Below, one piece after another: positions 32,212-47,541 of a DNA stretch of 48,822 nucleotides. Positions within the stretch are counted from its first letter, which is position 1. Each line of letters starts with the position of its first letter. Source of the DNA: Tunavirus T1; the sequence record MN153797.1; one strand, written 5' to 3'. The position numbers were made by a program, and so were the translations under genes. The notes under the pieces were generated by a model. It saw only the letters and a program-made list of their open reading frames with translations. It ran no database searches and was not told where the DNA came from.

Positions 32212-32634
32212 ATGCATATTATCACTGGCGAGATCCGCAAAGAACCAAAGATTCTTGAACGTAACGGCGGCAATACTTATATTATCGAACTGGCAGAAAG
32301 CTATAAGCCTCGTGATGGCGATCGCGAATACACCAACTACACGTTCTTTTTTAGCGACGGTGGGAAGCCAGGCCTTGCTGACTGGTATCGTGAAGCGTTC
32401 CAAGTTGGTCGAGTTATCTCAGTATCGTGCGAGACGTTGAAGATCTCATCACGCGAACACAACGGAATGATTTACAATTCATTGCAGGCGGCTGACTTCC
32501 CTAAACTAGTATTTAGTCAACGAGGTCAAAGCAACCAGCAACAACGAGCGCCTCAGCAACAACAGCGTTCTCAGCAGCAATCACAACCAAAACCAAATCA
32601 ACAATCAACATTTGACGACGATATTCCATTCTAA
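32212..32634 (+). CDS. ssb: single-stranded DNA-binding protein
   Basis: OB-fold-sized N-terminus, Gln-rich linker, C-terminus DDDIPF (canonical SSB tail). Confidence 0.75.
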   Translation: MHIITGEIRKEPKILERNGGNTYIIELAESYKPRDGDREYTNYTFFFSDGGKPGLADWYREAFQVGRVISVSCETLKISSREHNGMIYNSLQAADFPKLVFSQRGQSNQQQRAPQQQQRSQQQSQPKPNQQSTFDDDIPF

Positions 32635-44502: not shown

Positions 44503-46071
44503 TTAACCCATCAGTCGAGGATTGATGAAAACAATATCATCAATCCGGCAAGTGTAGTTCATCTCTTCGAGCGTGATCAGCAGGCTGTCGATTCGCTCAG
44601 CTACTTTTTGTTGACCGTTGAACGGCGTAACGTTACGGCACTTTGCAACAATGCTATGAATAGGTGCGCGACCTTTGTTCTTCTTTGCGATCTCAGTGAT
44701 AACATCAATCAGCTTACGAGATTCAGCCTCATCACCAGCATACCCGGCGGCGCTGGCAGACGACAGATAGGTTCTGGAAAGCTCATTGAAAATCATGATC
44801 GCTTCCTGCATTGTTTCAAGGTCAATCTCACGGTTGGAACGGTTCGGTGATTCACCCTCCCAGTTCTTGATTGTGTGAAGAACTGAAGCAATGCGCAAAG
44901 CGTGCTTATCGAACTTGCCGAGATGACCGCGTAGCATTGAGTGAGAGTATTTGCCCCCGGCTGCGAAATCCGGCTCCATAGCCTGGCGAGCAAGGTTTAA
45001 TTCACGCATAGCATTACGGCTTACAGAGAGAACAACGTTGTCCTCCTTCATAATGTTGTGCACAAGTCGATAATATTTACTCACCAATCCTCGATCGACT
45101 TCCTTATACAGTGCATCACCATTTTCATCGCAAAGAATACGAGTGCCTAAAAGAGGTTCCTCGCGAACCAATAGGAAACGCTCAGATACACCGATACCGC
45201 GCTGGCCTGCGTCCATGATACCCTTGATTGTTTCATCCTGCGCAATGACGCAGATCGAACCGACCGGGCAAAGAGATAAGTTATTGTCCTGATTTGAACG
45301 CGCAACCTCCATATGGTTTTTATCCCACGCCTTGAGGATAAGCTCGCTGTTTGATTTCTTATCAGAACCGCCATAAGTCAGGCCAAGCAATGTATTTATT
45401 GCCGTTGCCTCATCAGAGATTACGGAAAAGTGGCCTTGAACAGCAGCTACTTTCGCAAGACCTTCCGGTGTAGGATCTGATACCGCGAAAACAATATCAG
45501 CCATCTTCTTGATCTTCTCTTCCAGTTTTTCCTTGTCCTCGTACAGCGCCGCCGTCGTGTTACCCTTCGGATCGTTTTTGATTTCCTTCTCGATCTGACG
45601 TAGCTGACTGGTTAAACGGATACGTTCCTTTTTGCGCTCTTCATTCAGTCTCTGAATCTCTGCGCGCATAGGTGTAATCGCCGCTGAGTTAATCGCGGAT
45701 TTACCTGTTGATGGTGGCTGGCTAATCACCATATAAAGAGCGGTCGGTTGTTCTTCTCCGTGATATTGCACCCAAAACTTCCCTAGCATCGCGGCTGAGA
45801 TGCACCCAATGAAATGAGCGTACGCAGACGAAACAGGAAACTGTACAGACTCAGCTTTTGCTTTTGCATATTCGAATACCAGGTTATCGCCACCTAACGA
45901 AATCAGCGGGAACTTATCGTTTCCACTGTTGATATCGATCGGGTCTTGCCAAAACGAAACTGAATCCCCGTAGCTGTTTTCACGAATTGCGATCGCCACC
46001 GGATTAACTCCAGTGCTATTTGCGATCTCAATAATCTGTTGGTAATTCAGTTTTGGCTTAATATTAAACAT
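44503..46071 (-). CDS. P-loop ATPase, putative replication protein
   Basis: Walker A-like PPSTGKS; probable start MFNIKP with RBS aaggag, overlapping HNH stop (TGATG); ORF-track 5' extension covers the promoter. Confidence 0.5.
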   Translation of the reverse strand: MFNIKPKLNYQQIIEIANSTGVNPVAIAIRENSYGDSVSFWQDPIDINSGNDKFPLISLGGDNLVFEYAKAKAESVQFPVSSAYAHFIGCISAAMLGKFWVQYHGEEQPTALYMVISQPPSTGKSAINSAAITPMRAEIQRLNEERKKERIRLTSQLRQIEKEIKNDPKGNTTAALYEDKEKLEEKIKKMADIVFAVSDPTPEGLAKVAAVQGHFSVISDEATAINTLLGLTYGGSDKKSNSELILKAWDKNHMEVARSNQDNNLSLCPVGSICVIAQDETIKGIMDAGQRGIGVSERFLLVREEPLLGTRILCDENGDALYKEVDRGLVSKYYRLVHNIMKEDNVVLSVSRNAMRELNLARQAMEPDFAAGGKYSHSMLRGHLGKFDKHALRIASVLHTIKNWEGESPNRSNREIDLETMQEAIMIFNELSRTYLSSASAAGYAGDEAESRKLIDVITEIAKKNKGRAPIHSIVAKCRNVTPFNGQQKVAERIDSLLITLEEMNYTCRIDDIVFINPRLMG

Positions 46072-46610
46072 CACAATAAACTCCTTAGTTGACGGCGTGA
46101 ATGATACACCGTCAATGGTACACGCGTTTTGCAAAAAGTGCTATTCGATCCGTGATTCTCATGAAAACCGTATAGCCTTTCCGCTTCCTTACTTGCTTTA
46201 GCCGCTGCATCCAGCGTCATGAAGGTCCCTAAGTGTTTTGTCTTTTTATTTATGGTTATGTTTGCCGTGTATCTATTTGTTTTTTTATTCCAATACACTC
46301 CCATAACTCCTGTGTTTGATGACACTACTCCCTTGTTTCTTAGGTTGTCTTGCCTAGTTACTAGCCTGAGATTCTCAATTCTGTTATCGTCTCTTTCATG
46401 GTTTATGTGGTCTACATCCATTCCTTCTGGTATGTTTCCGTAGTGTATTTTCCATACTATTCGATGGGCGTATTCAAATACACCTCCTGGAAAACATATT
46501 GACCGATAACCTTTTTTATTAACAGTTCCGGCAAGTAGATTTCGTCTTCTTCCGATTCTCCACTCTTTCCAGTACAGTCTCCCGCTAACGTATTTCAGTT
46601 CATCTTTCAT
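46071..46610 (-). CDS. HNH homing endonuclease
   Basis: AHRIVWKIHYGNIPEGMDVDHINHERDDNRIENLRLV, GVMGVY; 3' end reads through promoter box 46129-46143. Confidence 0.7.
   Translation of the reverse strand: MKDELKYVSGRLYWKEWRIGRRRNLLAGTVNKKGYRSICFPGGVFEYAHRIVWKIHYGNIPEGMDVDHINHERDDNRIENLRLVTRQDNLRNKGVVSSNTGVMGVYWNKKTNRYTANITINKKTKHLGTFMTLDAAAKASKEAERLYGFHENHGSNSTFCKTRVPLTVYHSRRQLRSLL
46101..46143 (-). promoter_or_regulatory. Box-dependent promoter (minus): tagcactttttgcaa + TATCAT (46106-46101)
   Basis: Centre to -10 = 30 bp; lies inside the 3' end of the HNH ORF. Confidence 0.5.
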
Positions 46611-47023
46611 AAGTATTTACTCTCAAAGGTTGTGCCGTCTGCGATACTAAAACCAACCTCTTCGCGGAATAAGGTCCAGCGGCAACCGTCCTCATCAAAG
46701 ATGTAACCAGCCACGCCTCCAAGAGCGCGACCGCTTTCTACCTGGTAACGCTTTCCAACCTTGAATGATTTTTTCATTGGGTTGCGATGGTCAAGTCCGG
46801 TGCACTTGAGCGTCTTTGTTTTCAACTCGGTGAACTTCGCGAAGAAGATTTCATCAGATCCGTGAATATGTAATTCATCATGCTTTTCAAGTTTTAAATA
46901 CTTCCCGCATTTTAACTTTACTTCACGAGTATCATCATAGCGCTCACGACCTTTGTACAGATTGTTTACTTCGAATCCTGTGATTTTGTCTGCGGAAGTG
47001 CATTTAAGTTTGATTGATTTCAT
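46607..47023 (-). CDS. hypothetical protein
   Basis: ORF track; RBS caggag. Confidence 0.45.
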   Translation of the reverse strand: MKSIKLKCTSADKITGFEVNNLYKGRERYDDTREVKLKCGKYLKLEKHDELHIHGSDEIFFAKFTELKTKTLKCTGLDHRNPMKKSFKVGKRYQVESGRALGGVAGYIFDEDGCRWTLFREEVGFSIADGTTFESKYL

Positions 47024-47103: not shown

Positions 47104-47313
47104 TTACCAGGGAATATAATCGTCAACGTCCTCATTAATATCATCACCGGGTAACTCAAAGTTAGGATCGTATTCGCTTTCAGCATCCATATCCATATCA
47201 CCAAGAGCCTCGTCAAGTGTGATTTCTTTATATGCTACCTTGATGCACCATTCGGAACTAAGTCCGGCATCAAGCGCTGCAAAATAACGAGTCCAGAAAT
47301 TATCTTGTTCCAT
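47104..47313 (-). CDS. small acidic protein with C-terminus ..DDYIPW
   Basis: 69 aa; C-terminal third is mostly Asp/Glu and ends in an aromatic residue. Confidence 0.45.
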   Translation of the reverse strand: MEQDNFWTRYFAALDAGLSSEWCIKVAYKEITLDEALGDMDMDAESEYDPNFELPGDDINEDVDDYIPW

Positions 47314-47316
47314 TAA

Positions 47317-47541
47317 TTAGCCCCACGAATTAATGTAAATCGAGTTAGCCTCAAGCGTTGCACGAACATCCGCATCTGTTGCATTTATCAGTCGAGAGCC
47401 TGGCACGCTTCCGATAACACTATTTCCGTTACGCGTCTTAGTTACCGTCATTGAAATAAAGCCTGAAGACTTATCCATCTTGATAAATACACGGCCTTTT
47501 GCGTTCAGGTGCTTGATGATATTCTCAACTTTAATGCTCAT
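47317..47541 (-). CDS. hypothetical protein
   Basis: Internal ATG of ORF 47317..47625 with RBS aaagga. Confidence 0.4.
   Translation of the reverse strand: MSIKVENIIKHLNAKGRVFIKMDKSSGFISMTVTKTRNGNSVIGSVPGSRLINATDADVRATLEANSIYINSWG

Follow-up and report, generated by a model that had tools for sequence, protein, structure and literature searches.

Near the right end of the phage T1 genome, a minus-strand operon holds orf6, a gene for a small acidic protein whose C-terminus looks like the protein-interaction tip of an SSB. The SSB C-terminal tip is the hub that guides more than 12 bacterial replication, repair and recombination enzymes to single-stranded DNA, and the locus raises the question of what such a tip does on a protein of 69 amino acids. 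We addressed it in the complete T1 sequence MN153797.1 (48,822 nucleotides, called here the window; its coordinates are those of AY216660 / NC_005833 minus 14, with 99.9% identity over 1.6 kb). The answer that we favour, with a probability of roughly one in three, is that orf6 encodes a 'tail-only' SSB mimic that acts as a competitive decoy or plug in the pockets of SSB partners. The features discussed are listed in Table 1.

Table 1. Position in the window of orf6, of the parts of its product and of the other T1 features considered.
Feature	Coordinates	Strand	Basis
orf6 coding sequence, 69 amino acids plus stop	47104..47313	-	ORF list and translation; ATG start
N-terminal three-helix domain, residues 1-39 (helices 6-15, 20-27, 33-39)	47197..47313	-	AlphaFold2
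Near-invariant acidic motif A-L-G-D-M-D-M-D-x-E-S, residues 36-46	47176..47208	-	Translation; conserved in all clades, tail-less long forms included
Acidic linker, residues 47-61, EYDPNFELPGDDINE	47131..47175	-	pLDDT 55-60; length and sequence variable across the family
SSB-like C-terminal tip D-V-D-D-Y-I-P-W-COOH, residues 62-69	47107..47130	-	Translation
Ribosome-binding site GGGG, inside the end of orf5	47321..47324	-	Sequence; annotated RBS in AY216660
orf5, 74 amino acids, unknown function, conserved upstream neighbour	47317..47541	-	Syntenic in more than 40 loci
orf7, 138 amino acids, unknown function, conserved downstream neighbour	46607..47023	-	Synteny
orf9, DUF3987 helicase-like ATPase	44503..46071	-	Pfam PF13148, E 2.5e-42; phrog_2373 'DNA helicase'; synteny
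T1 SSB, ends FDDDIPF (DDDIPF codons 32614-32631)	32212..32634	+	phrog_44 SSB, E 2e-23; annotated SSB

The product of orf6 is identical to AAP49993.1 / YP_003939.1 (T1 orf6, CPTT1_074), is annotated 'hypothetical protein' in every source that holds it, and matches phrog_9085 over its full length (E 1e-45). No functional family was found for it in Pfam, PHROGs, NCBIfam, PADLOC or a PDB sequence-profile search. The orf5 stop codon lies 3 nt ahead of the orf6 ATG, and this arrangement suggests that translation of the two genes may be coupled. A scan for promoter and terminator consensus sequences found sites no more numerous than in shuffled sequence, and is uninformative on the timing of orf6 expression. 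Translation gives exactly the C-terminus from which the original prediction started, ...DEALGDMDMDAESEYDPNFELPGDDINEDVDDYIPW; the last nine residues are EDVDDYIPW, and the W69 codon directly abuts the stop codon (47104-47106). The protein has a net charge of -17 and a pI of 4.05. This charge is unevenly spread, with -3 for the N-terminal domain (N-domain) and -14 for residues 35-69, a segment that contains 14 acidic residues and no basic one.

The likeness to SSB is best appreciated within T1 itself, the SSB of which does end FDDDIPF, as had been claimed. Aligned with the C-terminal peptide of Escherichia coli SSB, MDFDDDIPF (PMC3632105), EDVDDYIPW is identical at five of nine positions and conservative at two more (V for F and W for F). 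T1 orf6 has the free C-terminus, the Pro-aromatic end (P68-W69) and a hydrophobic residue at -3 (I67); ahead of this tripeptide the T1 clade has D62, D64 and D65, but Tyr at -4. Orf6 and the SSB C-terminus share a flexible acidic segment and a D-x-D-D-x-I-P-aromatic pattern, with Pro at -2 and the hydrophobic residue at -3 kept in both, and differ by the terminal Trp in place of Phe and by Tyr in place of Asp at -4. Among the 541 stop-to-stop segments of at least 40 amino acids in the window, only SSB and orf6 end in acidic-x-I-P-[F/W]. Unrelated viral loci gave, among some 2,700 ORFs with 60 amino acids or more, five (about 0.2%) with an [ILVMF]P[FW] ending, and at least three of these five look like SSB-type tails. 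Furthermore, exactly two proteins per genome carry a tip, SSB and the orf6 orthologue, in T1, in the whole genome of Klebsiella phage RCIP0105 and in the right 28.6 kb of Escherichia phage haarsle; in these three phages SSB always ends DFDDDIPF, while the orf6 orthologue ends DDYIPW, CVPFW or RCFPF. Judged from the sequences, the resemblance of the two tails is not a matter of chance. The T1 SSB belongs to a divergent OB-fold SSB family: a search with Pfam SSB (PF00436) gave no match at E <= 0.01, despite the phrog_44 match and the DDDIPF tip.

The terminal Trp deserves attention, as Phe177 of SSB has been described as essentially invariant (PMC3632105), which speaks against orf6 being an SSB-tip mimic. 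A scan of IMG/VR found ORFs ending in DDDIPW in at least 120 viral contigs, and several of them pass Pfam PF00436 above the curated cut-off (E 1e-11 to 1e-24). Since Pfam-verified SSBs ending in DDDIPW exist, a terminal Trp can be regarded as a natural variant of the SSB tip. Proteins with the DDDIPW ending also include some of 75-216 amino acids that lack a Pfam SSB match, one of them with a weak match to DUF736. The SSB tip seems to have been grafted onto several scaffolds in phages.

The scaffold of orf6 is a small acidic helical domain, unlike the OB-fold DNA-binding domain of SSB. An AlphaFold2 model built on a 24-sequence alignment places three short helices in residues 1-40 (pLDDT 74-86) and almost no regular structure after residue 45, the tail having a pLDDT of 55-60; the linker and tail are therefore probably disordered, as far as such a model can tell. 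The protein lacks an OB fold (no Pfam PF00436 match and an all-helical model), and is not an SSB. A structure search returned no significant fold match for the N-domain. Residues A13, G17, L18, V26, A27, L33, A36, L37 and G38 are invariant in this domain across the family, and it is a conserved, separable module of orf6-family proteins. The LGDMDMDxES motif that follows probably makes, we would argue, a binding contact of its own; its alternating Asp residues (D-x-D-x-D) could coordinate a metal ion or engage a basic groove.

Members of the orf6 family are spread through the Drexlerviridae and uncharacterised, and number about 450-500 phage records (455-501 according to the orf6-family query). 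Y-I-P-W is retained by every close homologue in Tunavirus (67-99% identical). Among 1.84 billion representative proteins, a profile search yielded 35 divergent relatives that share the N-terminal 45 residues (consensus ..AxDAGLNxEWAxKVAyxexTLDdALGDMDMDxES) and have unrelated linkers, and nearly all of them end in I/L/V/F-P-F or -P-W. When all retrieved sequences were pooled, 149 of 153 distinct short members had the hydrophobic-P-[F/W] ending, a few with one extra residue; the endings were IPW (63), FPF (56), IPF (17), PFW (7), LPF (3) and VPF, EPF and ISF (one each), and evident truncation or frameshift explains three of the four exceptions. The tip Pro is invariant in one family alignment, and the residue at -3 is I, F, L, V or M across the family. 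Two annotated products are anomalous. In Shigella phage vB_SsoS_008 (L130 812-1108; P0063) the orf5 and orf6 frames are fused and the product stops after ...GNMDMD, without linker and tip, and may reflect a natural variant that has no tail or else an error in sequencing; that of vB_EcoS-DELF2 (P0064) is truncated at its N-terminus. About 20 'Campylobacter phage' records (about 47 kb, e.g. MG065679.1) carry a T1-type helicase and an orf6-family gene, which is typical of enterobacterial Drexlerviridae, and their host assignment looks doubtful.

The clades differ mostly in what lies between the acidic motif and the tip. The T1 clade has an acidic Cys-free linker leading to ...DDYIPW and a mean net charge of -16. 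The largest other clade, of Tempevirinae type and called CFPF here, has C-x-C-x5-C-x2-C followed directly by F-P-F, so that R-C precedes FPF and the last 10 residues have a net charge of about 0. In other clades a comparable four-Cys knuckle precedes IPF, MPF, VPFW or IPFW. Compared with the SSB C-terminus, these clades thus have a knuckle in place of the acidic run, or a residue added past Pro-Phe, as in the Klebsiella-phage and some IMG/VR members that end VPFW, IPFW or VPFL. AlphaFold2 gives a Cys-knuckle orthologue the same helices and low-confidence tail as orf6, in a model that does not include zinc. Speculatively, the negative charge of a Zn(Cys)4 centre might replace the Asp run in these clades.

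Codon analysis of 14 T1-clade and 21 CFPF-clade genes gave a dN/dS of 0.09-0.10 for the N-domain, and of 0.18 (T1 clade) and 0.07 (CFPF clade) for the linker. In the last four codons, all 48 pairwise differences within the T1 clade were synonymous and none nonsynonymous, and the CFPF clade had a pN of 0.011 against a pS of 0.875. Given the low dN/dS, and tip codons devoid of nonsynonymous differences in the T1 clade, orf6 is a real gene under purifying selection, and the tip is its most constrained part. The original prediction that the C-terminus resembles the SSB protein-interaction tail is thus upheld by a tip conserved family-wide, by purifying selection that is strongest there and by the existence of true SSBs that end in Trp.

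The N-domain also occurs without the tip, in the middle of Ackermannviridae proteins of about 160-180 amino acids (Vi01-like; phrog_4823) and in proteins of 217-309 amino acids that have a C-terminal zinc ribbon. That of orf6 matches phrog_9323, which holds the Cys-knuckle forms, and the middle of phrog_4823, which holds the Ackermannviridae long forms; like phrog_9085, both are sequence clusters of unknown function, and we found no record that links the three through the shared N-domain or that mentions a shared SSB-like tip. One Vi01-like long homologue (182 amino acids, no SSB-like tip; L171 5752-6300) is encoded about 800 bp from, and divergently to, the gene of a 1059-amino-acid family-B DNA polymerase.

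The genomic context of orf6 is one of DNA metabolism. The order orf5, orf6, orf7, DUF3987 helicase-like ATPase, HTH protein is kept in more than 40 Drexlerviridae loci from IMG/VR and GenBank; DNA methyltransferase and HNH genes are variably inserted in this block, and the small ORFs upstream of it vary. T1 and JMPW2-like genomes contain, between orf7 and the helicase, the HNH endonuclease orf8 (46071-46610, minus strand), which is missing from relatives that are otherwise 95-99% identical (loci L126, L131, L132 and L136), the pattern expected of a mobile homing endonuclease. Elsewhere T1 encodes an exonuclease VIII-like nuclease, Erf, SSB, a primase, a second helicase, a resolvase and Dam. 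Conserved synteny led us to consider orf6 as an essential core replisome gene; we dropped this in view of Webervirus Skenny, whose whole genome contains no orf6-family member and no tip-bearing protein besides SSB, its orf5 homologue running straight into a methyltransferase. The helicase matches 900 phage records, against 455-501 for the orf6 family, and the shortfall comes mainly from Klebsiella phages. Because some of these phages, such as Skenny, live without it, orf6 is a widespread accessory gene that occupies a semi-variable slot of the operon. In RCIP0105 a 114-amino-acid Cys-rich ORF (…CCEAPGCG…CSKSC…; L003 3143-3487) lies directly upstream of the orf6 homologue, and both are absent at the matching Skenny position, as if gained or lost together.

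How could such a protein act as a decoy? In SSB partners (ExoI, RecQ, RecO, chi, DnaG) a hydrophobic pocket receives the Pro-Phe of the tip, while a basic rim takes the Asp residues and the terminal carboxylate (PMC3632105). We propose that the flexible acidic linker of orf6 presents a free ...D-D-Y-I-P-W, as a form of the SSB tip D-D-D-I-P-F, which would insert into the basic-rimmed hydrophobic pocket of such a partner. Devoid of an OB fold and strongly acidic, orf6 should be incapable of sitting on single-stranded DNA, and for this reason occupancy of the pocket would uncouple the partner from SSB-coated DNA. Extra affinity, and the choice of one particular partner, would come from the N-domain and the acidic motif. 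As target we would guess at a host enzyme working on the single-stranded intermediates of phage recombination or replication, for instance a single-strand-specific DNA exonuclease or a helicase. Within this tail-only scheme the tip would be displayed on an acidic linker in the T1 clade and on a putative zinc knuckle in most other Drexlerviridae.

Several observations point to a decoy of this kind. The tip appears to have been selected in spite of unrelated linkers, as both the 149 of 153 members and the codon data indicate; the probably disordered tail resembles an SSB linker on a protein that has no OB fold; and location in a conserved DNA-metabolism operon, together with dispensability in Skenny, fits an accessory modulator. 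Other observations argue against it. In the CFPF clade the tip is flanked by a basic residue (R-C-F-P-F) and by no acidic run, and the low dN/dS of the linker of this clade hints at an interface larger and more specific than a simple tip. The residue past Pro-Phe in Klebsiella-phage members would shift the terminal carboxylate away from where canonical binding of an SSB tip uses it. Finally, competition of a general kind would extend to the phage's own SSB, which bears a host-type tip. The suggestion that the tail could compete for SSB-binding pockets is thus supported as regards tip likeness and selection; the competition itself is what we infer, and a recruiting role would fit the same data.

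Some of the points raised against a decoy feed a different explanation, in which the hydrophobic-Pro-aromatic end binds a phage or host partner unrelated to the SSB-tip pockets, and the T1 clade came to look like SSB by convergence or coincidence. We consider this somewhat unlikely. In its favour, family-wide only hydrophobic-P-[F/W] is conserved, the acidic context is clade-specific, and variants such as RCFPF, CVPFW and CVPFL occur. The constraint on the N-domain, on LGDMDMDxES and on the CFPF-clade linker suggests a large specific interface, and the tip-less Ackermannviridae proteins show the N-domain to occur on its own. Against it, a C-terminal Pro-Phe is the hallmark of SSB tips, to which the T1 clade adds D-x-D-D at matching positions; most unrelated phage ORFs with such an ending look like SSB-type tails; and SSB is the sole other tip carrier in each genome checked.

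Alternatively, orf6 could be a recruiter or adaptor rather than a competitor, and the evidence from the tip would be the same as for a decoy. In this model, which we find unlikely, the N-domain and the acidic motif bind a phage replication or recombination protein, such as the DUF3987 helicase, orf5 or orf7, while the tip captures a host SSB partner such as Pol III chi, DnaG or PriA. Host machinery would thereby be tied to the replisome of a phage lacking a polymerase of its own. In support of a recruiter, the gene order around the helicase is preserved, the annotations of T1 (22-48.8 kb) and of the complete Skenny genome include no DNA polymerase, and the tip-less N-domain homologue of Ackermannviridae is encoded next to the phage's own family-B polymerase. 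Nevertheless orf6 cannot be an essential link of the replisome, because Skenny lacks it, as do apparently some half of the phage records that have the helicase, and the phage SSB already supplies a host-type tip.

By analogy with the competing acidic tails of other phage replisomes, the tip might instead be aimed at the phage's own SSB partners (Erf, the exonuclease VIII-like nuclease or the primase), and time or tune T1 recombination-dependent replication. T1 encodes the exonuclease, Erf and SSB as one module, and phage annealing proteins have been reported to depend on the C-terminal residues of SSB (ETfinder paper, PMC13490951). Yet orf6 lies about 15 kb from this module, in a different operon, and we regard such tuning as improbable.

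The weakest candidate, and a very improbable one, is a DNA mimic comparable to Ocr, ArdA, gp5.9 or Gam and directed against restriction enzymes or RecBCD, which the original prediction had put forward for restriction: the charge of orf6, the acidity of all family members (-4 to -20) and the DNA methyltransferase genes that adjoin the gene in many relatives would suit it, but the acidic segment is of low confidence and almost without regular structure in AlphaFold2, no similarity in sequence or fold to known mimics was seen (nor any in Pfam, PDB or PADLOC), the terminal tripeptide is conserved while charge near the tip is not, one T1-like phage is described as highly sensitive to type II and III systems, and most Drexlerviridae are reported to be very sensitive to all types of restriction-modification although the orf6 family is widespread among them (PMC8594841).

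Returning to the tail-only mimic, what the sequences would offer is a docking peptide already known from SSB, here mounted on a new, non-DNA-binding scaffold, with a function that we infer entirely. Full-text literature yielded no description of the orf6 protein or of an SSB-tip mimic other than SSB. It may be, and we give this about the same chance as the decoy, that orf6 is the first phage-encoded mimic of the SSB docking peptide on a non-DNA-binding scaffold, one that seizes, silences or redirects the host SSB network or blinds immunity that reads SSB; phage SSBs and exonuclease I have recently been tied to the triggering of several anti-phage systems. If this is true, a small tip-only phage protein would be a natural, evolved competitor or adaptor for the SSB hub, which would represent a new route of host takeover and could readily be used to probe or inhibit the network of SSB interactions; a gene conserved in the classic phage T1 and in about 450-500 sequenced relatives would also gain a function.

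A precedent for two tails in one phage is T7, in which gp2.5 and gp4 both have an acidic, Phe-terminated C-terminal tail and vie for shared sites on T7 DNA polymerase. T1 SSB and orf6 are likewise two proteins of one phage with a common acidic, aromatic-ended tail, as would suit competition for a partner or its hand-over. Unlike that of orf6, the T7 tails are borne by proteins whose roles in the replisome are known, and their target is a polymerase that the phage itself encodes, whereas none is annotated in T1 (22-48.8 kb) and the body of orf6 has no known activity. With T7 Ocr, ArdA, T7 gp5.9 and lambda Gam, orf6 shares small size, strong acidity and an operon presumed early; these inhibitors are folded, rigid arrays of charge, in contrast with the low-confidence acidic part of orf6, in which the conserved element is the terminal tripeptide. 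The family tips YIPW, CFPF and CIPF do not correspond to a beta-clamp-binding motif, the consensus of which is of the Q-L-x-L-F type, as they contain neither Gln nor an L-x-L-F pattern. A connection with the Hna defence was also discarded, the SSB tip not being involved in the Hna paper. Gp54 of Bas11, a small Drexlerviridae protein that triggers CapRel, is not an orthologue of the helical orf6 because its crystal structure is a six-stranded beta-barrel of 66 amino acids (PMC11578894). Bas52_0087, the trigger of DRT10, is unrelated in sequence and is not a member of the orf6 family either, being a true SSB-like protein with two OB folds; interference with SSB partners of the host, exonuclease I for example, has been proposed for it (bioRxiv 10.64898/2026.04.29.721553), and what it has in common with orf6 is that both are phage proteins with a conserved SSB-type tip, of the FDDDIPF type in Bas52_0087.
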